Below, piece after piece: positions 1,071 through 21,621 of a stretch of DNA of 64,000 nucleotides. The stretch is from Spirochaetota bacterium. Its GTDB lineage: Bacteria; Spirochaetota; UBA4802; UBA5550. Both the position numbers and the translations under genes were made by a program. A model generated the notes under the pieces. That model searched no databases, was not told the origin of the DNA, and saw only the letters and a list, made by a program, of their open reading frames with translations. The stretch spans positions 106,849 to 170,848 of the forward strand of contig JAKQPV010000087.1 of the NCBI GenBank assembly GCA_029564515.1. The letters are read 5' to 3'. Numbering within the stretch: position 1 is the stretch's first letter; every line of letters starts with the position of its first letter.

Positions 1071-2297
1071 TTAATAATTATCAATACCGTTGCCGTTCCA
1101 GGAATCAGTTACCGTGTCCAGCTGCGGCACTTCTTCATCCGCCATCGGGGCCTTCAGTAAATGTTCCGGCAGGAAGGCCAGATTGGCAATGAGCGTCGGA
1201 ATCACGGCGCTTCCAATGACAGCCGCGATCAGGAACGAATACTGATCGCGTGTAACGATGCCGTGCGTCAGCCCATACAGGGCCGAGATCGAACCAAAGG
1301 TCAGGCCTGTGGACATGAGGAGCGTGTAATACCACCGCTCTTTCCTGCTTTCACGGAACCGCCCGATAACCGGGTAAAGACCGAATATTTTCGATATGAC
1401 CTTGCCGGCGAACAACACAAGGAATACCAGCGGTGCGGCGATGATCGCGGGAATCGACACGAGAAACCCGGCGCGCAGAAAATAGATCGGGGTGAGGAAG
1501 CCGATGGTAAGCGTGCGCAGGCGGCGGATGAAAAACTCGTCCTTAGCCACGCTCCCGGCGAGTACCATGCCCGCAATATAGGCCGGCAGGACCGGTTCGC
1601 TCCCTGCCCAGAGCGCGAGCGCGCCAAGACCGAACAGCACGAACACGATCCACTTCGTGCGTATGGCGGCGGTGCGGTTACCGTATATGCGGGTGAGCCG
1701 CGCCGTTATCGGCGTCATGATAAAGAATACCGCAACGCACGCGGCGATGAACACCAGGGTCCTGTATGAAAATGGTGCATAGATAAGCCCCAGCGCTATG
1801 ACCGTGCCCAGGTCATTGACGAAACAGGCCCCGAGTATCCCTTTCCCGTACTCGGTCTTGTTGAACCCGTATTCCAGCATGACAGCATAGACCACTGCCA
1901 TTGACGTGGTCGAGAGCGCAATGCCGCCAAGGAGGCTCGCGCGCGGGTCCCAGCCCAGAGCAAAGTACGCCAGGGCGGCGCATCCGAGGAACGGGGCCAG
2001 AAAGCCGATGAGCCCGACCACGGTGACCTCCTTCGCCTTTGTTCTGATCGAGACAGGATCGAGATCCGCTCCGGCCAGGAAAGTGAGGAGCACCGCCCCG
2101 GACCCGGCTATAAATTTCATCCATTCAGCGTTCGGCTTCAATATGTCAGGATCGAAGAAACGTGACGCAAGGTACCCGGCGAGCGCGCCCACGCAGATCT
2201 CCATAAGCGCCATGGATATTTTCAAGCGATTGGCAAGTAATGTGGACAGAACCGCCAGGCCAAGCCAGACCGTGGCAATGGTAAACATATCAAGCAT
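1071..2297 (-). CDS. Cation:proton antiporter (CPA family Na+/H+ exchanger)
   Basis: Polytopic membrane protein of about 12 TM segments with CPA-like glycine-rich helices. I moved the start to the internal ATG (MLDMF...), which lies 4 nt after a perfect AAGGAGGA RBS. The listed ORF extends to 2360. Confidence 0.75.
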   Translation of the reverse strand: MLDMFTIATVWLGLAVLSTLLANRLKISMALMEICVGALAGYLASRFFDPDILKPNAEWMKFIAGSGAVLLTFLAGADLDPVSIRTKAKEVTVVGLIGFLAPFLGCAALAYFALGWDPRASLLGGIALSTTSMAVVYAVMLEYGFNKTEYGKGILGACFVNDLGTVIALGLIYAPFSYRTLVFIAACVAVFFIMTPITARLTRIYGNRTAAIRTKWIVFVLFGLGALALWAGSEPVLPAYIAGMVLAGSVAKDEFFIRRLRTLTIGFLTPIYFLRAGFLVSIPAIIAAPLVFLVLFAGKVISKIFGLYPVIGRFRESRKERWYYTLLMSTGLTFGSISALYGLTHGIVTRDQYSFLIAAVIGSAVIPTLIANLAFLPEHLLKAPMADEEVPQLDTVTDSWNGNGIDNY

Positions 2298-2564
2298 GGA
2301 ATCCTCCTTAAAAAAACGGCATCCGCCCGGCGGCGGATACCGTTTTCCGACAGACCCCACCGCACGCTCGCGGCAGGAGTCATCAGCTGTTCATGACGGC
2401 GGTTATAGGGGGACTCCATCCCCGATGTTCAAATCGATGGACAATTAATATATCACAGCAATAATTTCAAGTAGATTAGCATGTAAAAAGTAAATTAAAT
2501 GGCTTGTCAGAACATTGCTCCGGCTGTATGGTAGATTTGAAAACAGGCGCCTCGATCGATCACT

Positions 2565-11449: not shown

Positions 11450-14032
11450 ATGAAATTGGCTGATCTGCAAAACGGACAGAAGGGAGTGATCGCCAGGATA
11501 CACGGCCGCGGTCCTTTCCGTAACCGCATCACCGAGATGGGATTTGTACGGGGAAAAACCGTTTCTGTAATAAAGAATGCCCCGCTGAAAGACCCTATCG
11601 AATACCGGCTTATGGGTTATAACGTATCCCTGAGGAGAAGCGAAGCCGCTCTTATTGATGTGGACCCCGTCGAAATGAACAATTGCGCCGCACCTGCTCC
11701 GCTCAGGGAGCGGCATGGGCCGGGCTACCGTCATCGGCACCGCGGCGGCTCCCTCCATGACGGTGCAGACTCTCATCCGCATGCACAATTCCGCGGACGC
11801 CGCAAACACGGTCTCGCGGAACGGACCATCAGGGTCGCCCTGGTCGGCAATCCGAACAGCGGCAAAACGACGCTTTTCAACAACGCCTCCGGCTCACGCG
11901 AGCATGTCGGGAACTACTGCGGCGTTACCATAAGCGCAAAGAAGGCCCGCTTCAACCACGATGGGCGCACGTTCCTCATAACGGACCTGCCGGGCACCTA
12001 TTCTATTTCCGCATACACTCCGGAAGAGCTCTTCGTGCGCGACCACCTGCTCGATGAGCGTCCCGATGTCGTTATCAATGTTATCGATGCCTCCAACCTC
12101 GAGCGCAATTTGTACCTTACGACCCAGCTGATAGATATGGGACACACCGTCGTGATCGCGCTTACCATGAGCGACGAGATGATGAAGCGGGGCGATTCAT
12201 TCAACCATACGATGCTCGGGAAAATGCTGGGTATACCGTTTGTTCCCACTGTCGGGCCGACGGGAGAGGGCATTGACGTCCTTTTCGATACGGTCGCGGC
12301 AGTGCACGAGGGAAGGGACAGCACGGTAAGGCAGGTGACGATCAATTACGGTCCCGACATCGAGAGCGCACTATCAGCGCTGGAGAAGAGCATTGCGGAA
12401 GCAGGCGCCGGCATACTTCCCTTTTCCCCGCGATTCGCCGCCATCAAGCTTCTCGAAAAGGACCCCGACATTATCCGGCGCATGGCCGGGCTCCCGGGCG
12501 GCGCAGGTATAACGATCGGCGCGGACAGCCTAGTGCGGGAGCTCGAAATCGTCATGAAGGAAGACTGCCAGACACTGCTAAGCGACGCACGGTACGGTTT
12601 TATCGCCGGGGCTCTCCGCGAGACGCTTCGTCCGGCATGGCAGCCCGCGTTCACCATGAGCGACCGGATTGACCGGTTCCTCACGCACCAGGTGTTCGGC
12701 TTCCCCATCTTCCTTTTTTTCATGTGGGCCACCTTCCAGCTTACGTTCACCCTGGGTCAGTACCCGATGGACTGGATAGAGTCCGGCGTCGTGTGGCTGT
12801 CCGGTTTCGTCAGTTCCGTCATGCCCGCCGGCCTGTTACGCGAGCTTATTACAGACGGCATTATTGCCGGAGTGGGCGGCGTCATCGTGTTTCTTCCAAA
12901 CATTTTGATTCTGTTTTTCATGATATCCCTGATGGAGGATACCGGCTACATGTCACGTGCCGCCTTCATAATGGACCGGCTCATGCACGGCATGGGCCTC
13001 CACGGCAAATCGTTCATCCCGCTCATCATGGGGTTCGGCTGCAACGTTCCCGCGATCATGGCCACCCGTACCCTCGAGAGCAGGAAAGACCGCCTCCTTA
13101 CCATGATGATCATTCCGTTCATGTCGTGCAGCGCGCGCCTTCCGATCTTCGTCCTCCTGATCGGGGCCTTCTTCTCGGCGTACGCGGGCACCGTTCTGTT
13201 TCTCCTGTATATCACCGGGATCCTTGTTGCGGTCCTCTCCGCGCTGTTATTGAAGAAGACGCTGTTCCGCTCAGAAGAGGCGCCGTTCGTCATGGAGCTG
13301 CCTCCATACCGCGCTCCCCGGCTGAAAAACACCCTGCGTCACATGTGGTCGAGAGCCCTGGAATATCTGAAAAAAATTGGCGGTATTGTGCTCGTGGCCG
13401 CAATCCTGATATGGGCGCTTGGCCGGTTCCCGTATGGTGCCGAAAATGAAGCCGCCCATGAGGCCCGGATCAGTGCGGTAACGAATAAATACGCGCTTGA
13501 ACAGCAAAATCTGAGTCCGGAAGACGTGACCGGACGAAGCTCCCTTGCGGACAGGATGTCAGAAGAGATACGCCTCCTCGAACATGAGCGAGACCGCTTA
13601 CGCCTCGAGGGTTCGGTCATCGGACACGCCGGCAGGCTCATCGAGCCGGCTGTCTCGCCGCTCGGCTTTGACTGGAAAATGGGTGTGAGCCTGTTGACCG
13701 GGTTTGCCGCGAAGGAGATCAGCGTAAGCACATTGGGCGTTCTTTACCATCCCGACAGGAGCGATCGGGCAGACGACCGAGGCATCGAGAAAGCGTTGAA
13801 GGAACAGCGGTACGGATCCGGACCCCTTGAGGGCCGCCCGGTCTTTGATCCCCTGACCGCTCTCGGCTACATGCTTTTCATGCTCCTCTATGTCCCCTGT
13901 GTGGCCACTCTGGCGGCCATGAAAAAGGAATCCGGCTCATTGAAGTGGCCGGTCATCTCGGCCCTGTATTCAACAACGGTTGCCTGGCTTGTCGCGTTCC
14001 TGGTCCGGCAGTCGGGGCGCCTTATCGGGTAA
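11450..14032 (+). CDS. feoB: Ferrous iron transporter FeoA-FeoB fusion protein
   Basis: The N-terminal FeoA SH3-like domain (MKLADLQNGQKGVIARI...) is joined by a His-rich linker to the FeoB G-domain (VALVGNPNSGKTTLFN) and a polytopic permease. The start is set at the internal ATG (MKLADLQ). Confidence 0.9.
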   Translation: MKLADLQNGQKGVIARIHGRGPFRNRITEMGFVRGKTVSVIKNAPLKDPIEYRLMGYNVSLRRSEAALIDVDPVEMNNCAAPAPLRERHGPGYRHRHRGGSLHDGADSHPHAQFRGRRKHGLAERTIRVALVGNPNSGKTTLFNNASGSREHVGNYCGVTISAKKARFNHDGRTFLITDLPGTYSISAYTPEELFVRDHLLDERPDVVINVIDASNLERNLYLTTQLIDMGHTVVIALTMSDEMMKRGDSFNHTMLGKMLGIPFVPTVGPTGEGIDVLFDTVAAVHEGRDSTVRQVTINYGPDIESALSALEKSIAEAGAGILPFSPRFAAIKLLEKDPDIIRRMAGLPGGAGITIGADSLVRELEIVMKEDCQTLLSDARYGFIAGALRETLRPAWQPAFTMSDRIDRFLTHQVFGFPIFLFFMWATFQLTFTLGQYPMDWIESGVVWLSGFVSSVMPAGLLRELITDGIIAGVGGVIVFLPNILILFFMISLMEDTGYMSRAAFIMDRLMHGMGLHGKSFIPLIMGFGCNVPAIMATRTLESRKDRLLTMMIIPFMSCSARLPIFVLLIGAFFSAYAGTVLFLLYITGILVAVLSALLLKKTLFRSEEAPFVMELPPYRAPRLKNTLRHMWSRALEYLKKIGGIVLVAAILIWALGRFPYGAENEAAHEARISAVTNKYALEQQNLSPEDVTGRSSLADRMSEEIRLLEHERDRLRLEGSVIGHAGRLIEPAVSPLGFDWKMGVSLLTGFAAKEISVSTLGVLYHPDRSDRADDRGIEKALKEQRYGSGPLEGRPVFDPLTALGYMLFMLLYVPCVATLAAMKKESGSLKWPVISALYSTTVAWLVAFLVRQSGRLIG

Positions 14033-14038
14033 TATGCC

Positions 14039-14215
14039 ATGGTGCAGACGATTCTGGTCATTACAATTGTGGTCCTTGCCTCCGTCGTCGCCGGGTTCCG
14101 GGTATTCCGCTTTTTTACCGCCTCCCGCTCATCCGGCTGCTCGCCGGAACAGTGCGCTTCCTGTCCCTATTCCGCCCGGCCTTCCGACTGCCGCCCGGGG
14201 CCCGAAAAAAAGTGA
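14039..14215 (+). CDS. FeoB-associated Cys-rich membrane protein (58 aa; not in the ORF track)
   Basis: Translation is MVQTILVITIVVLASVVAGFRVFRFFTASRSSGCSPEQCASCPYSARPSDCRPGPEKK. It has one N-terminal TM helix plus a Cys-rich tail and begins 6 nt after the feoB stop. Confidence 0.6.
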   Translation: MVQTILVITIVVLASVVAGFRVFRFFTASRSSGCSPEQCASCPYSARPSDCRPGPEKK

Positions 14216-14235
14216 TTTTTTAACATTTTTATTCT

Positions 14236-14265
14236 TGACGGTTTTGCGGTGTTTCTATATATAGT
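14236..14265 (+). promoter_or_regulatory. Putative sigma70 promoter of the trp operon
   Basis: TTGACG, then 15-17 nt, then TATATA, about 45 nt upstream of the leader peptide ATG. Confidence 0.5.
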
Positions 14266-14307
14266 AACTATGTTTCTATTCATAGAAACATTTATTCCAC
14301 GCAGGGG

Positions 14308-14373
14308 ATGCAAGCGGTGGCGCGAAACAATGCAACGACGATCTGGTGGTGGGGCATGCATACCTTCCGGTAA
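14308..14373 (+). CDS. trpL: trp operon leader peptide (21 aa, MQAVARNNATTIWWWGMHTFR)
   Basis: Three consecutive TGG Trp codons sit in a short ORF immediately upstream of an intrinsic terminator and trpE. Confidence 0.8.
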   Translation: MQAVARNNATTIWWWGMHTFR

Positions 14374-14405
14374 GCGGTATCGCGCCATGCTCGTGTTGTG
14401 GAAAA

Positions 14406-14436
14406 GTGCGGTATCATGCCGCACTTTTTTGTTTTT
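14406..14436 (+). terminator. trp attenuator (intrinsic terminator with an upstream alternative-pairing segment)
   Basis: The hairpin GTGCGG-tatcatg-CCGCAC precedes TTTTTTGTTTTT. The upstream segment aaGCGGTATCgcgcc repeats the GCGGTATC half and could form an antiterminator. Confidence 0.75.
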
Positions 14437-14460
14437 ACACCGATTTAGCAGGAGAAGACC

Positions 14461-15936
14461 ATGCTGTACCCGTCATTGAATGAATTTTCTGACCTTGCCC
14501 GCACATACCGGCGGGTCGTGCTCTATCGCGAGATCGCTGGCGACCTGGTCACCCCGATCGGCCTGCTCGGCAATTTCGCTGATGAGCCGCACCTGTTCCT
14601 CCTGGAAAGCGCCAATCTGGACCGGAGCTTTTCCCGATACACCTTCTTCGGTGTCCGCCCCCGGCGCGTCATAACCTTCCGTGACGGAACGCTGACTGTC
14701 GAATCAGCTGAAGGGATCGTACAGATAGTTGAATCGAACCCGATTGACTACCTTATATCTCAACTTTCTGCTGAGAATTCCGCGAAAAGCCCGGCCATGG
14801 GCGGCTTCTGCGGCGGATATGTCGGCTTCATCGGATACGATATAGCCAATTACATGGGCATGCTTCGCACGAAAATACGTGAAGACAGGGAAAACCTCGT
14901 CATGGCTTTTCTCCAGGCTGATGAATTCTACGTGTTCGACAATCACCGGGGAAAGCTTTACGCTGCCTGCTCCATGCTCCCCGGCGCGGATCCTGCTGCT
15001 GCTTACCGCACGGCAGCGGCGCGCACTCTCGGGATGGCTGCGGAAATCATCCCCTCGTCTTTCTCGGCCGCGACGCCGGGATCGGGGCTGGAACGGACGC
15101 AGGAGTTCGATGAATCATCCTTCGTCGAAACAGTACGCCTTCTTAAAGATGACATCATGAGCGGAGAATGCATACAGGCGGTCCTCTCAAACAAGCACGA
15201 GATCGAGGGAAGCGTCAACCCTGTTACCCTCTACCGCCTGCTCCGGAATATCAACCCTTCACCCTACATGTTCTACGTCAAGGTACGCGACGAAGTCCTC
15301 CTGGGCGCCTCGCCTGAAATACACCTGAAGATCGAGGACAGGGTCGCCACCCTCAAGCCTATAGCCGGGACCTATCGCCTTGATGGCGGCGATACGGGTT
15401 TACTGGCCGCGAAACTCCTTGCAGATGAAAAGGAGCGCGCCGAGCACCTGATGCTTCTTGACCTCGCCCGGAACGATCTTTATACCGGGTGCGCGACCGA
15501 CTCCGTGAACGTGGTGAGCTCATTCAAGCCGGAAGTATACTCGCACGTCATCCACATCGTATCCGAGGTACAGGGGCGGATGCGGGACGACGTTTCGCCG
15601 CTGCGGCTCTTCTGCAACACCTTCCCTGCAGGGACCGTGTCCGGCGCACCGAAGGTCCGCGCTATGGAGCTGATCGACCGGTATGAAAAGTCGCCGCGCG
15701 GCTTCTATGCCGGCTGCGCCGGATATTTTTCCTACAGCCAAGACATCGACACCTGTATCGTCATCCGCAGTGCGATGGTCAAAAAAGACCGCGTCATACT
15801 TCGGGCCGGCGCCGGCATCGTGTACGACAGCGAGCCGGAGAAGGAGTACCGGGAAGTCGGCGTCAAGCTTGGCGCGCTCTTTGACGCATTTAACTGCATC
15901 AGCACACTGGAGGAGCAGCATGTTTTTACTGATTGA
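14461..15936 (+). CDS. trpE: Anthranilate synthase component I
   Basis: Chorismate-binding enzyme family with C-terminal catalytic motifs. An AGGAGAAG RBS lies upstream. Confidence 0.9.
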   Translation: MLYPSLNEFSDLARTYRRVVLYREIAGDLVTPIGLLGNFADEPHLFLLESANLDRSFSRYTFFGVRPRRVITFRDGTLTVESAEGIVQIVESNPIDYLISQLSAENSAKSPAMGGFCGGYVGFIGYDIANYMGMLRTKIREDRENLVMAFLQADEFYVFDNHRGKLYAACSMLPGADPAAAYRTAAARTLGMAAEIIPSSFSAATPGSGLERTQEFDESSFVETVRLLKDDIMSGECIQAVLSNKHEIEGSVNPVTLYRLLRNINPSPYMFYVKVRDEVLLGASPEIHLKIEDRVATLKPIAGTYRLDGGDTGLLAAKLLADEKERAEHLMLLDLARNDLYTGCATDSVNVVSSFKPEVYSHVIHIVSEVQGRMRDDVSPLRLFCNTFPAGTVSGAPKVRAMELIDRYEKSPRGFYAGCAGYFSYSQDIDTCIVIRSAMVKKDRVILRAGAGIVYDSEPEKEYREVGVKLGALFDAFNCISTLEEQHVFTD

Positions 15937-16492
15937 TAATTACGATTCATTCACCTACAATCTCTTCGCCCTGTTCAGGGAATGCGGTGCTGATGTTGAC
16001 ATCATCAAGAACGATGCCTATGTCCGGGCAGACCGCTACGAGGGGATCATCCTCTCCCCCGGGCCGTCCTCGCCGGAACACTCGGGAACCACGCTCCGGT
16101 ATATCCGGGAACACCTGGGCAGCACGCCTATCTTCGGGGTCTGCCTCGGCATGCAGGCGCTGGCCAGCTCCCTGGGGTACCCGATCGTCAGGGCGCGGAC
16201 AATAAAGCACGGCAAACTGGACGAGATCTCGGTCACGAAAGAATCGGTGCTCTTCCGGGATGTGCCCCGGACCTTTTCAGCGGTGCGCTACCATTCGCTG
16301 GCAGCTGCTGCGGACGAGCGTCATGTCACTTCCCGGTCGCTGGGTGACGGCACCGTCATGTCGATCGAGGACCGGGAGCGGAAATGCTTCGGCGTCCAGT
16401 TCCACCCCGAATCCATACTGAGCCAGTGCGGCCGGCAGATCATACGGAATTTCATCGGTTTCACCGCTGACAATTCATCGTCGGGAAACTGA
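15920..16492 (+). CDS. trpG: Anthranilate synthase component II (glutamine amidotransferase)
   Basis: MFLLIDNYDSFTYNL...GVCLGMQ is a class I GATase. The start is an ATG preceded by GGAGGAG, and it overlaps the trpE 3' end by 17 nt. The listed ORF 15683.. is an upstream in-frame extension. Confidence 0.9.
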   Translation: MFLLIDNYDSFTYNLFALFRECGADVDIIKNDAYVRADRYEGIILSPGPSSPEHSGTTLRYIREHLGSTPIFGVCLGMQALASSLGYPIVRARTIKHGKLDEISVTKESVLFRDVPRTFSAVRYHSLAAAADERHVTSRSLGDGTVMSIEDRERKCFGVQFHPESILSQCGRQIIRNFIGFTADNSSSGN

Positions 16493-16493
16493 G

Positions 16494-17516
16494 ATGCAGG
16501 GAGGAACAATGGACCGGATTCTACAAAAAGTCAATTCAGGCGACCGGCTCAGCTTCAACGAGGCCAGGGATCTGTTCGAATCGATGATGCAGGGAAGCCT
16601 TGCCGAATCGCAGATCGCGTCGTCCCTTATCGCCATGAAGCTGCGCGGTGAGACCGTGGACGAGCTGGCGGCGCTGGCCGTGGCCATGAACCGCAACAAG
16701 CGGGCTTTCACCCCCGGTGTGAAAGGCACGATTGACACCTGCGGTACGGGCGGTGACGGAAAATCCACGGTTAACGTTTCGACCGCAGTGGCGATCATCA
16801 TCGCGTCGATGGGGTATCCAGTCGTCAAGCACGGTAACTACGCCCAGAGCGGTATCGTGGGCTCGGCTGACATTCTATCGGACCTGGGAGTGGATATAAA
16901 CGGCATAACATCGCCGGAAGAGTATCTCGCCAGGCACAACTTCATCTACATGCTGGCGCCTCTCTACCACCCTGCACTCAGGGGCATCGGCAAGGTCAGG
17001 CGAGAGCTCAAAGTCCCCACGCTCTTCAATCTCGCGGGCCCGCTGGCAAACCCTGCCGACCCTGACTACCAGATCATAGGGATCAGCAGGCGGGGAAGGC
17101 TTGAATTCATGGCCGGCGTACTGGAAAAAATCGGCAGAAAAAACATCACTCTCTACTCCTCACGGGACGGATACGACGAAGTCTCCTCCGCCAACACCAC
17201 CGAGTGCATACATATCGGTGAAGGTGATACCCGGCGCTTTACAATCGATCCCTCGGACTTTTTCGAGCCGTTTCCCATGCCGGTCGTCCGTGATCGTGAT
17301 GACGCCCGGCATCAGTTTCTGGACGGCCTGACTGGCCGCTGTGAGACCCTTATGAAGGTATTCGCCCTGAATGCGGCTCTGGCGCTTCGCACCATGAACT
17401 GCTGCGGTATGCGGGAAGGCTTTTTCTCGGCGCGCGAGCAGATATCCTCGGGACGAGCTATCAGTAAGCTCGAAGAGCTCGCATCGGAAGAATCTGCAGC
17501 CCGGGCGGCACAGTGA
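16494..17516 (+). CDS. trpD: Anthranilate phosphoribosyltransferase
   Basis: Contains GTGGDG and the other TrpD signature segments. Confidence 0.9.
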   Translation: MQGGTMDRILQKVNSGDRLSFNEARDLFESMMQGSLAESQIASSLIAMKLRGETVDELAALAVAMNRNKRAFTPGVKGTIDTCGTGGDGKSTVNVSTAVAIIIASMGYPVVKHGNYAQSGIVGSADILSDLGVDINGITSPEEYLARHNFIYMLAPLYHPALRGIGKVRRELKVPTLFNLAGPLANPADPDYQIIGISRRGRLEFMAGVLEKIGRKNITLYSSRDGYDEVSSANTTECIHIGEGDTRRFTIDPSDFFEPFPMPVVRDRDDARHQFLDGLTGRCETLMKVFALNAALALRTMNCCGMREGFFSAREQISSGRAISKLEELASEESAARAAQ

Positions 17517-17523
17517 GGAACCC

Positions 17524-18285
17524 ATGCTTCTGAACGAAATCATCGAGTACAAGAGGCTGGAGATAAAAACGCTGCGACCGGATGCTGTCGAACGCCGGCG
17601 ACCCGTGAGAGACACGATGGCATTTCTCCGTTCACGCCCCTTCATCGCAGAAATTAAAAAAGCATCTCCCTCACGCGGTGTGATCAACAATACGGTTGAT
17701 ATCGCATCACGGGCCCGAGAGTACGAGTGCGGCGGCGCAGGCGCGGTGAGCGTGCTTACAGACAGCCGCTATTTCATGGGAAGCTTCAATGACCTGAGCG
17801 AGATCTCGTGCTCGATCAATATCCCGATCCTCTGTAAAGACTTTATTATCAGCGAAGCGCAGGTCGACCAGGCATACTGCCACGGCGCCGACTTCATCCT
17901 TCTTATCGCTGCCGCCCTCACCGTGCGGGAGATCAGGATTCTGTCACGTCGCGCGGCCCGGTATTCCATGAAGGTGCTGTACGAGCTTCACGATGCGGAC
18001 GAGTTCGATAAAATCCGCCACAACGATCTGGAGCTCGTGGGGGTCAATTCCAGGAATCTTAAGACTTTCGTGATCGACAAAGACGGGGCAGCAGCGACGC
18101 TCCGGGCCGTCAGGGGCTCCTTTACCAGGGTCGCCGAAAGCGGCATCGAAACCGCGGAGGACGTGCGGCGGTTGCGGTCCGCCGGCGCTGACGCATTTCT
18201 GATCGGAACGGCACTCATGATTTCAAAAAATCCTTCCCGCACCCTTGCCGAATTTCACGGTGCGCTGAGGCCGTCATGTTCGTGA
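17524..18285 (+). CDS. trpC: Indole-3-glycerol phosphate synthase
   Basis: TIM-barrel IGPS motifs are present (EIKKASPS, NSRNL). Confidence 0.9.
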   Translation: MLLNEIIEYKRLEIKTLRPDAVERRRPVRDTMAFLRSRPFIAEIKKASPSRGVINNTVDIASRAREYECGGAGAVSVLTDSRYFMGSFNDLSEISCSINIPILCKDFIISEAQVDQAYCHGADFILLIAAALTVREIRILSRRAARYSMKVLYELHDADEFDKIRHNDLELVGVNSRNLKTFVIDKDGAAATLRAVRGSFTRVAESGIETAEDVRRLRSAGADAFLIGTALMISKNPSRTLAEFHGALRPSCS

Positions 18286-18818
18286 AAGTATGCGGCATAA
18301 CAAGGGCCGAACAGCTCGACTGGGCGGTCGAGCTCGGGTATTCTGCAGCCGGTGTGGTCCTGCATCCGGAAAGTTCCCGCTACTGCGGGTTGGACCGCGC
18401 AGCTGAGCTTGCCCGGCACGCCCGTGGCAGAATTTCGACAGTTGCGGTAGGAATTACATTCTCCGAGGTCGCTCCCGTCGCCGACGCATTCGATTTCGTG
18501 CAGGTCTACGAGTATCAAAACGGGGAGCGTGTAATCTGCGCCGGTGACTCGGAGCTTATCGCTCGCGATTCGTCTCTTTTCATGTATGATTCGAGCAGGG
18601 GGACCGGTCGTATCGGCACGCTTCCCGCATGGCTCCATGACGTGCGGTGGAAGCTGATCATTTCCGGCGGTCTGACGTCCCGGAACGTGGCGGGTATAGT
18701 TAGGGAATTCCAGCCCTTCGGCGTCGATGTATCCAGCGCAGTCGAATCTGCGCCGGGCAAGAAAAATTATGAGCAAATGAAGGAATTCATAAACGAGGTT
18801 TGCAATGCGTCCCGATAA
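18276..18818 (+). CDS. trpF: Phosphoribosylanthranilate isomerase
   Basis: Begins MFVKVCGIT. It overlaps trpC by 10 nt. Confidence 0.85.
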
Positions 18819-19980
18819 AGGATTTTTCGGTCGGTATGGAGGACAATTCGTGCCCGAGACGCTCATTCCGGCTCTGGACGGGCTTGAACAAGCATACTGC
18901 GATTTCAAAGCAGATGCCGGCTCGGTGCATGAACTCGAGCGCTACCTGAAGGAATTCGCCGGACGACCGACCCCGGTTTATTATGCGGCGAGTATCTCGG
19001 CCAAATACGGTTTCGATTTATTTTTAAAAAGGGAAGATCTGCTTCATACAGGAGCGCACAAGATCAACAATACGATTGGACAGGCGCTGGTGGCGCGCCG
19101 TATGGGCAAGCGACGCATAATTGCGGAAACAGGCGCCGGTCAGCACGGCGTTGCAACTGCTACCGCGGCCGCGCTCTTCGGTCTTGAATGCTGTATATAC
19201 ATGGGGAGCGTCGATGTTCAACGTCAGATGCCCAATGTGAAAAAGATGCGGCTCCTGGGCGCAGAGGTGGTGCCGGTAGACGACGGACTCAAGACACTCA
19301 AGGATGCCATCAGTGCGGCACTGAGGGACTGGGTCGCCTCGTTCAAAGACACCCATTACCTGATGGGCACCGTTGCAGGACCACATCCGTTTCCGGAGAT
19401 GGTGGCCTTCTTTCACGCAGTCACCGGCCGGGAGGCACGCGAATATTTTCTGGAGAAAGGATACCTCCCCGACACGGTGGTGGCCTGCGTGGGAGGAGGC
19501 AGCAACGCGATGGGCATCTTCCAGGGATTTCTTGACCAGCCGGAAGTTGCGCTCGTCGGCGTGGAAGCCGGCGGAAGGTCGCTCGGTCCCGGGGATAACG
19601 CCGCCACCCTGTCCCAGGGGACCCCGGGCATATTCCAGGGCGCCCTCTCGTACCTGCTTCAGGACGGGCACTGTCAGGTCCAGGACGTGCATTCCGTGTC
19701 AGCGGGCCTGGACTATGCCGGCATAGGACCTCAGCACGCGTTTTTGAAAGACTCGGGCAGGGTGGCCTACACCCACGTATTCGATACAGGTGCCCTTGCC
19801 GCTTTCCACGAGCTTACTCGCCTTGAAGGCATCATGCCGGCACTGGAATCCTCCCACGCGCTGGCCTGGGCCCTGGCCAATGCGAAAGCGCTTTCGGGGA
19901 CACGCGTCCTGGTGAACCTCTCGGGAAGAGGCGACAAGGACCTTGGTATCATAGAGCAGAACATGCGGGAGGCCTTATGA
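18805..19980 (+). CDS. trpB: Tryptophan synthase beta chain
   Basis: PLP-dependent enzyme with the motifs HTGAHKINN and GGGSNA. It overlaps trpF. Confidence 0.92.
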
Positions 19981-20690
19981 AAGGCATTTATCTCACCGGG
20001 GGTTATCCGGACAGGAACGGCTTTATCGATTGCTGTAAAATGGTCGCATCAAGCGGTTTTGATTTCATCGAGGCAGGAATTCCCTTCAACGATCCAATTG
20101 CGGATGGCCCGGTTATCGCCGGTGCCATACATGAATCAATTGCAGCCGGAGCGACTCCGGGAACCGTGATGGACGATATCGCATATATTGGTTCCCTGAA
20201 GCTGAAGAAATTCGTCATGACGTACGCCAACATCATTTATTCGTACGGTATCCGGAATTTCTCTGCGAAAATGGCCCCGGTACTGGACGGCATCATCATC
20301 CCGGACCTGCCAAATCGCTTGGCGGACCTTTTTTACGACGGCGGCTTGGACATACCGATCGTTCCCTTCGCGACGCTTGAATCGCGGGAAACGGACATCG
20401 ACAGAATGAACGCGTCACGGAGCGAGATAATCTACTTTATCGGCGTGCGGGGAATTACCGGAGCGAAGTCGGATTTCAGCGCACCCGAGCTGGCAGATAA
20501 AATCGGCATGATACGAAAACGCACCGGGAAAAAAATAATTATAGGGTTTGGCATAAAGACCGGCGCGGACGCCCGGCAGGCCATGGCTATCGGAGACGGC
20601 TTTGTTGTGGGTACAGAGGCGGTACGCAGACAGAAGAACCCTGCAGCGCTGAAAGAATATTTGGATTCATTGAACAACGCGCCGGCGTGA
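19977..20690 (+). CDS. trpA: Tryptophan synthase alpha chain
   Basis: TrpA fold. Its start overlaps the trpB stop as ATGA. Confidence 0.88.
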
Positions 20691-21021: not shown

Positions 21022-21621
21022 TCAGTTACACCTGTCGAATGTGATCTTTCCCGATGCGCTCCCGCCCCCGGGGAAGGAACATTCAACATCAAGGGCCCCT
21101 TTAACCAGCACGATATCATTAACCATGATACTGGTTCTATCGAGTTTTATTTCATACCGGGTGCAGTACTGAGGGTCAATGATGACTTCCTTGCACTTTT
21201 CGTAGTCAGGCGGCTCGCACGAACCTGGCACTTCCACTTTTAATTGCTTGCCCTTTGCAGGATCAAGGAACGCTACGACGGCCCCGTCCTGTTGTCCTTC
21301 GCCCAGCAATACTGCGCCGAAAAAGCCCAGCCGCTGACCTGAACGGCACTGCCTCGGAACAAAAGTGAAGTTTCCGAGCGGCTCTCCCTTTGACATGAAC
21401 GACCCGGAGACGCTGGAGCAGCCTTTCATCATAAAGAAGGCTCCCGCGACCAGGGCAATATTGAGCGGAATCGTTAAAAGCAGAATTTTTCGTTTCCGGG
21501 CCGTTCCGGGCGCCCGTGTCGCTGCTGCTGGCGGGATGTCCGCAAGCGGTGCGCCGCAGGCACTGCAGTAGCGGGCATCGTCCTCAACAATCTGGTGTTT
21601 GCATATCTGACACTGGCGCAT
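21022..21621 (-). CDS. Zinc-ribbon domain membrane protein (hypothetical)
   Basis: An N-terminal CxxC...CxxC double zinc ribbon is followed by a TM helix and a C-terminal extracytoplasmic domain. Confidence 0.55.
   Translation of the reverse strand: MRQCQICKHQIVEDDARYCSACGAPLADIPPAAATRAPGTARKRKILLLTIPLNIALVAGAFFMMKGCSSVSGSFMSKGEPLGNFTFVPRQCRSGQRLGFFGAVLLGEGQQDGAVVAFLDPAKGKQLKVEVPGSCEPPDYEKCKEVIIDPQYCTRYEIKLDRTSIMVNDIVLVKGALDVECSFPGGGSASGKITFDRCN

Follow-up and report, generated by a model that had tools for sequence, protein, structure and literature searches.

Predicted transcription attenuation and candidate promoter operators ahead of the trpEGDCFBA operon of an uncultured Spirochaetota bacterium

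Results

The trp operon and its host

The window, by which we mean the whole 64-kb stretch of DNA that was analysed, contains all seven trp genes in the order trpEGDCFBA, as assigned with NCBIfam models, the start of trpG at 15920 being read separately:

14461..15936, + strand: trpE (anthranilate synthase I), preceded by the Shine-Dalgarno (SD) sequence AGGAG at 14450-54
15920..16492, + strand: trpG, overlapping trpE by 17 nt
16494..17516, + strand: trpD
17524..18285, + strand: trpC
18276..18818, + strand: trpF, overlapping trpC by 10 nt
18805..19980, + strand: trpB, overlapping trpF by 14 nt
19977..20690, + strand: trpA, with an ATGA overlap with trpB

The remaining junctions are gaps of 1 nt (trpG/trpD) and 7 nt (trpD/trpC). 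An earlier note on this DNA had listed the seven genes with these same four overlaps, all of which are as claimed, and the independent gene calls of related genomes show the same overlap pattern. The overlaps suggest translational coupling of the genes concerned.

The TrpE product is 88% identical to that of the Spirochaetota MAG L001, and the TrpE clade in the protein database comprises about 60 sequences (56-99% identity), the named members of which are MAGs labelled 'Spirochaetes/Spirochaetota bacterium'. Scans of metagenomes and genomes with TrpE yielded few close relatives; the close ones came from the protein database and from contig look-ups, and 12 loci of the clade (L094-L105) were retrieved. 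Common to the window and its relatives is a syntenic set consisting of M28 peptidase, SPOR and MptE-like genes, the trp operon, and FAD oxidase and PNP_UDP genes. Judging from these sequences, the host is an uncultured Spirochaetota bacterium, a relative of the Spirochaetota MAGs and no proteobacterium.

Two ORFs flank the operon, neither of which looks regulatory. The first is a small Cys-rich ORF at 14039-14215 (+), after feoB, whose counterparts in the relatives give a weak match to the Pfam family FeoB_associated. The second, at 21022-21621 (-) downstream of trpA, encodes a conserved Cys-rich protein with a zinc ribbon, either membrane-bound or secreted, that is 54% identical in L102.

Promoter, leader peptide and terminator

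The region between feoB and trpE contains the following features:

14235..14240, + strand: putative -35 hexamer TTGACG, 17 nt upstream of TATATA
14251..14268, no strand assigned: box 1, palindrome GTTTCTATATATAGTAAC over the -10, candidate operator (motif scan, conservation)
14258-14263, + strand: putative -10 hexamer TATATA, at the centre of box 1
14272..14289, no strand assigned: box 2, palindrome GTTTCTATTCATAGAAAC, approximately +1 to +22, candidate second operator (motif scan)
14303-07, + strand: SD-like AGGGG
14308..14373, + strand: trpL leader ORF, MQAVARNNATTIWWWGMHTFR followed by the stop, 21 codons with an ATG start (sequence and ORF list)
14344..14352, + strand: three tandem Trp codons TGG TGG TGG, the presumed regulatory codons
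14346..14364, + strand: region 1, Trp codons and the codons that follow (folding of region 1 with region 2)
14369..14388, + strand: region 2, with the core GGUAUCGCGC at 14376-85 as 5' strand of the predicted antiterminator (folding, duplex energies)
14402..14416, + strand: region 3, terminator 5' arm and loop, including GUGCGGUAUC at 14406-15 as 3' strand of the predicted antiterminator
14417..14436, + strand: region 4, terminator 3' arm UGCCGCACUUUU (14417-28) and U tract UUGUUUUU (folding, conservation)

The promoter that the earlier note had placed in this unit is borne out by the two hexamers and their 17-nt spacing, together with the occurrence of TTGAC(N) at the equivalent place in 13/13 related loci; transcription would start near 14270. 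A promoter and terminator consensus scanner reported neither this promoter nor the leader terminator, and both were verified instead by reading, folding and conservation; the scanner missed the promoter because the -10 ends in A.

The leader ORF reads ATG CAA GCG GTG GCG CGA AAC AAT GCA ACG ACG ATC TGG TGG TGG GGC ATG CAT ACC TTC CGG TAA, exactly as quoted previously, and is thus a short translatable ORF with in-frame tandem Trp codons, as expected of an attenuator. The sequence TGGTGGTGG occurs twice in the 64 kb, both strands considered, against 0.4 expected. The only SD-like run in the vicinity, AGGGG, abuts the ATG at 14308 with a spacing of zero. By contrast, 9 nt separate the AGGGG from a GTG at 14317 in the same frame, which is aligned with the ATG start of the leaders of L001 and L094; this GTG is the likelier start, and the leader may thus have 18 rather than 21 codons. 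From either start, ATG 14308 or GTG 14317, the TGG run is in frame, as the earlier note had maintained. The C-terminus of the peptide, T-F-R/H/Q-stop (ACCUUCCGnUAG; 14362-14373 in the window), is conserved in L001, L094, L096, L099, L102 and L103, and the N-terminal part is free to vary.

The leader ORF is separated from trpE, the first structural gene, by a strong intrinsic terminator, the presence of which had been asserted before. It consists of the hairpin AAAAGTGCGGTA-TCA-TGCCGCACTTTT at 14402-14428 followed by TTGTTTTT, with a U tract that runs to 14436 and ends 25 nt before trpE, and it folds alone with -15.3 kcal/mol. In an alignment of 8 sequences, 98.9% of the cells are paired and 4 of the 11 pairs show compensatory changes, a level that 0 of 500 shuffles reach. 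The possibility that this hairpin is the terminator of feoB was considered and rejected. The gene feoB is directly upstream in the window, in L001 and in 7/12 fetched loci; in four others, other genes take its place, the upstream neighbour varying among feoB, an MptE-like gene, a methyltransferase cluster and SpoIIE. Because the upstream genes differ between loci, the hairpin is assigned to the trp leader rather than to feoB.

Antiterminator and leader folding

Immediately downstream of the leader ORF, GCGGTATCGCGCC occupies 14374-14386, and 10 nt of it (14376-85) are complementary to 14406-15, with three G-U pairs. The energy of this duplex is -15.2 kcal/mol compared with -7.0±2.1 kcal/mol for shuffled region 2, and none of the 500 shuffles was as good. 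A pairing of such a segment with the 5' half of the terminator had been proposed in the earlier note and is confirmed here, with the partner comprising the arm plus the loop.

In all full-length minimum free energy (MFE) structures, the terminator is present, and the antiterminator would therefore be accessible only kinetically. Such dominance of the terminator is normal for attenuators, whose function is not provable by folding. Global MFE folding with ribosome masks always kept the terminator and paired the RNA 5' of the ribosome across the mask; because these structures were uninformative, the nascent RNA downstream of the ribosome footprint was folded instead. With the ribosome stalled, the MFE structure of the nascent RNA from the 3' edge of the footprint to the terminator loop is the antiterminator hairpin (-13.4 kcal/mol), which excludes the terminator; the two hairpins thus appear mutually exclusive, both by duplex energy and by the own-versus-cross permutation described below. 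With the ribosome modelled at the stop codon (14371-73), region 2 is covered and only -3.6 kcal/mol of competing structure is left. The core of region 2 begins 2 nt after the stop TAA, and this placement is the reason why a terminating ribosome would mask region 2 and one stalled at the Trp codons would not.

The segment 14338-14392 folds into a helix between regions 1 and 2 (-18.0 kcal/mol) in which the Trp codons at 14346-51 pair with 14383-88. The whole leader folds with -63.8 kcal/mol (z = -3.7 compared with shuffles). Given that a terminator, an antiterminator, a 1:2 helix and stop-codon masking are all predicted, the four-segment logic of classical attenuation is complete. In the modelled footprints, region 1 overlaps the regulatory codons and the ribosome positions conform to the attenuation geometry, with the caveat that, in the MFE structure of the window, region 2 pairs most strongly with GUGGCGCGA (14317-25), located just 5' of the stalled-ribosome footprint. 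This pairing could, in principle, re-form behind a stalled ribosome, although another ribosome, trailing or initiating, may cover 14317-25.

No Trp_leader or T-box match was found with cmscan, either at E<=10 in 13800-14800 or at the gathering score across the whole window, the matches obtained being chance ones on the terminator hairpin only. The description of this attenuator as being of the E. coli type, made in the earlier note, accordingly stands for mechanism and geometry and fails for homology to the Rfam Trp_leader family: because no Rfam family matches, the leader is to be regarded as an analogue of Trp_leader and not as a detected homologue.

The Rfam result also bears on the sensor. 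The trp operons of Firmicutes are controlled by TRAP and T-box mechanisms, and a terminator/antiterminator pair is common to ribosome-, TRAP- and T-box-sensed attenuation, so that the pair itself would equally fit a leader that is sensed by a TRAP-like protein binding (G/U)AG repeats or by uncharged tRNA-Trp. We consider sensing of either kind extremely unlikely. No T-box or other Rfam family was detected at E<=10, nor at the gathering score window-wide, and a T-box would need a much longer leader; the 90 nt from the leader start to the terminator contain no series of 9-11 spaced GAG/UAG triplets; and neither TRAP nor a T-box would explain a conserved ORF with a run of Trp codons (W run). Sensing by the ribosome is therefore the favoured reading of the leader.

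The attenuator in relatives

A W-run leader ORF, a terminator and a predicted antiterminator precede trpE in 11 Spirochaetota MAGs with TrpE 63-88% identical to that of the window (L001, L094-L099 and L101-L104), as well as in the Leptospirales MAG L028. The W run, which ranges from WW to WWWW, is the sole invariant feature of the leader peptides of these relatives, which otherwise diverge (for example, MNRNATAQTSIWWWGMHTFR, MKPMVTAHVQWWWNRGTSR, MNMNMNDRYNWWWWNVFP and MSIKNKIDNKWWRKT). The spacing is constrained as well: the distance from the W run to the stop is 9-18 nt, mostly 18, and that from the stop to the terminator arm is 27-34 nt in the clade and 60 nt in L028.

RNAalifold applied to a MAFFT alignment of the interval bounded by the stop codon and the terminator loop recovered no column-consistent antiterminator and yielded just a 4-bp hairpin, because the pairing register differs between subgroups. 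We replaced this approach with a permutation of own versus cross-genome duplexes and with a table of pairs anchored on the arm. Region 2 pairs with the arm of its own genome with a mean energy of -12.2 kcal/mol compared with a cross-genome mean of -10.0 kcal/mol (p = 1.4e-4 for 13 sequences; p = 0.002 for 10 non-redundant sequences). In the table, for which the invariant UGCGG core serves as anchor, both partners change at arm positions +5 to +8 (U:A/C:G, A:U/G:C and C:G/G:C/A:U). The duplex between region 2 and the arm does not outperform shuffles in L099, L101, L103 and L104, and outperforms them only marginally in L001 and L098. Taken together, these comparisons support co-evolution of region 2 with the terminator arm. 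A region 1-type partner of region 2 is also present in L001, L094, L096, L101 and L028, and in several relatives region 2 would, until the terminator has been synthesized, most probably pair with the W-codon stretch.

These comparisons weigh against the simplest account of the hairpin, namely that it is no more than a constitutive or partial terminator, or that of feoB, with the WWW ORF untranslated or fortuitous and control exerted solely at the promoter boxes. This account would be in line with the poor SD for the ATG at 14308, with the persistence of the terminator in every full-length MFE structure, and with L100 and L105, where the boxes alone suffice. However, the promoter sits downstream of feoB and ahead of the hairpin, the W run is invariant in otherwise divergent leader ORFs at 12 loci with different upstream genes, and region 2 co-evolves with the terminator arm in a setting of conserved stop-codon geometry. 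We thus regard a mere terminator as very unlikely and retain ribosome-mediated attenuation as the well-supported reading.

Two further observations concern leaders in other genomes. In L098, about 250 nt with inverted CGCAAAG-type repeats (2285-2500) intervene between the attenuator terminator and trpE and resemble an insertion of a small repeat or mobile element. Further W-run leader ORFs were seen before trpE in a Lentisphaerae MAG (L002 213-299; …FYWWWWRSN…, with a terminator), in another Spirochaetota MAG (L007 2845-2922; …GRKWWRSEK) and in an Armatimonadota MAG (L008 1850-1900; …FFCWWWRR, 1.1 kb upstream).

Palindromic boxes at the promoter

The promoter carries two palindromic boxes, which are an addition to the earlier note, where they had not been mentioned. 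Box 2 lies at a distance of 21 bp from box 1 and forms a perfect inverted repeat (10+10) spanning 14270-14291; its RNA, if transcribed, would form a 5'-terminal hairpin (-7.1 kcal/mol). The consensus of the 18-bp boxes is GTTTCTATnnATAG(A/T)AAC, and that of the 20-bp form is TGTTTCTATnnATAG(A/T)AACA. The window contains two matches, where chance would give 0.09. Across about 690 kb of window and loci, matches with at most one mismatch are found solely before trpE, and there is one match with two mismatches elsewhere (L055:330).

The motif is found upstream of trpE in the window, L001, L010, L028, L050-56 and L094-L105, either paired or, in L098, L101, L104 and L028, single; when paired, the boxes are spaced by exactly 21 bp. 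The interval from the -35 to the start of box 1 is exactly 10 nt in the window and 11 loci (L001 and L094-L103) and 9-13 nt in four others. Between the window and L001, the differences in the boxes are confined to the central 2 nt, and in L105 both arms are changed symmetrically (GTTAC…GTAAC). Because the boxes include the -10, their conservation is in part promoter conservation. The boxes also occur without a leader ORF or terminator, in L100, L105 and L010/L050-56, the latter being a distant spirochaete group with TrpE 36% identical.

A palindromic, operator-like site overlapping the -10 or +1 of a trp promoter, at a conserved position relative to the -35, is what would be expected of a TrpR-type operator. 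The boxes are probably the operators of a candidate dimeric repressor and constitute a module separate from the attenuator. An unlikely alternative, although one to be taken more seriously than those discussed above for the leader, holds that the boxes are a lineage-specific promoter architecture (an extended -10 context) combined with a 5'-terminal hairpin that stabilizes the mRNA, with no operator involved. The centre of box 1 is indeed the -10, box 2 begins at about +1 and could yield the RNA hairpin described above, and no regulator was found in the window and loci searched. Several features are nevertheless difficult to reconcile with this alternative: the 18-20-bp palindromes have conserved arms and a free centre and are present once or twice, with the exact 21-bp spacing when paired; they recur at trpE promoters even in lineages with TrpE 36-39% identical; single boxes sit over the -10 and cannot be a full RNA hairpin; and the symmetric arm change in L105 is as expected of a site for a dimeric protein. 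On balance, operators remain the preferred interpretation of the boxes.

A repressor gene for the boxes was not found in the window or the fetched loci of the clade by tblastn and by Pfam searches of small ORFs; in particular, tblastn with E. coli TrpR detected no ORF resembling TrpR, either in the 64-kb window or in these loci. The sole TrpR match in the tblastn search lies on an unrelated marine metagenome contig (L075 2676-2813; E = 3e-5), immediately upstream of a trpE with a product 31% identical. Among 20 small ORFs of the window searched with Pfam, an Xre-type HTH at 34-417 has no link to trp. The TrpR operator TGTAcTnGTnnACnAgTACA and the HisR motifs have been summarised previously (PMC9413887). 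Like TrpR-family operators, the boxes are 20-bp palindromes, have TGT…ACA ends and overlie the promoter of an operon for amino-acid biosynthesis; they differ from the TrpR operator in the inner half-site (TTCTAT compared with ACTAGT). Because no TrpR-family gene was found in the window or the fetched loci of the clade, a TrpR-family regulator is only a lead.

Discussion

The results presented here are best accounted for by a control region of trpEGDCFBA with two layers, ribosome-mediated transcription attenuation and repression at the boxes, a reading to which we assign a probability of about 0.82. The first layer is well supported by sequence comparison and folding, and the second is suggested by the position and conservation of the palindromes; ribosome stalling, the response to Trp, and the repressor with its ligand are presumed components of the model.

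Under this model, transcription would start at about 14270, and the leader ORF would be translated while the RNA polymerase moves on. When Trp-tRNA is plentiful, the ribosome would reach the stop at 14371-73, its footprint would extend over 14376-85, and the terminator would form before trpE. When Trp-tRNA is scarce, the ribosome would stall at 14344-52 and melt the 1:2 helix, leaving region 2 free because it lies at least 24 nt downstream of the Trp codons; region 2 would then pair with 14406-15 before the 3' arm is made, and the polymerase would read into trpE. Should translation fail altogether, the 1:2 helix would form and termination would be the default. At the promoter, a dimeric repressor, presumably Trp-responsive, would bind the boxes over the -10 and +1 and block initiation, so that repression and attenuation would act in series, as in E. 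coli.

The closest parallel is E. coli trpL (RF00513), which the window leader resembles in its short ORF with tandem Trp codons, in the 1:2 / 2:3 / 3:4 logic, in the terminator just before trpE, and in a stop codon so placed that the terminating ribosome masks region 2. The likeness extends to TrpR, given an operator palindrome that overlaps the -10 and two control layers in series. However, the window leader does not match RF00513 at E<=10, and it has three Trp codons and six codons from the W run to the stop, whereas E. coli has two and two. The operator sequence also differs, with two boxes 21 bp apart in a Spirochaetota host, and trpG/trpD and trpC/trpF are unfused in the window, which has seven separate genes.

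The trpL attenuator of Sinorhizobium meliloti encodes the leader peptide peTrpL and gives rise to the sRNA rnTrpL (PMC7298713, PMC6614838); it controls trpE(G) only, and there is no transcriptional repression in that system (PMC7298713). Like the window peptide, peTrpL has three consecutive Trp codons near its C-terminus, with …SIWWW compared with …TIWWW in the window and …SIWWW in L094, a resemblance that is most likely convergent. By analogy with rnTrpL, termination in the window would release a small leader RNA. Outside Proteobacteria, leader-peptide trp attenuators with lineage-specific sequences have been described in Actinobacteria, namely ahead of Streptomyces venezuelae trpE and in Corynebacterium (PMC1262725). 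These differ from the window in phylum and sequence, and no associated palindromic operator has been described for them.

The literature searched contained no description of trp attenuators or trp operators from spirochaetes; the search was incomplete, and such an absence is no proof of novelty. The mechanism is ordinary, and what sets the present case apart is a phylum for which no earlier report was found in that literature. The understanding of attenuation itself is unchanged by this attenuator. Classical ribosome-sensed trp attenuation is extended, with comparative support, to an uncultured Spirochaetota clade and a Leptospirales MAG. Rfam has no model that detects these leaders, and the dozen or so sequences at hand could seed one and improve the annotation of these MAGs. 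The relatives with boxes and attenuator, as opposed to those with boxes only, amount to a small natural experiment on the gain and loss of repression and attenuation, and the operator motif provides a handle for finding its regulator.

More tentatively, and with somewhat less than even confidence, we propose that the palindrome TGTTTCTATnnATAG(A/T)AACA is the signature of a new regulon, controlled by a Trp-responsive repressor and widespread among Spirochaetota, the Leptospirales included. Its repressor would be either a divergent member of the TrpR family or unrelated to it, and would operate in series with a lineage-specific attenuator while evolving independently of it. As part of the same conjecture, the terminated leader RNA of about 165 nt, with a 5' hairpin and the terminator at its 3' end, could also act in trans like rnTrpL.

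Elsewhere in the window, a fluoride riboswitch (RF01734; 2367-2432 (-), 53.9 bits, E = 3.7e-12) immediately precedes a gene of the Na+/H+-exchanger family (1071-2360 (-)).
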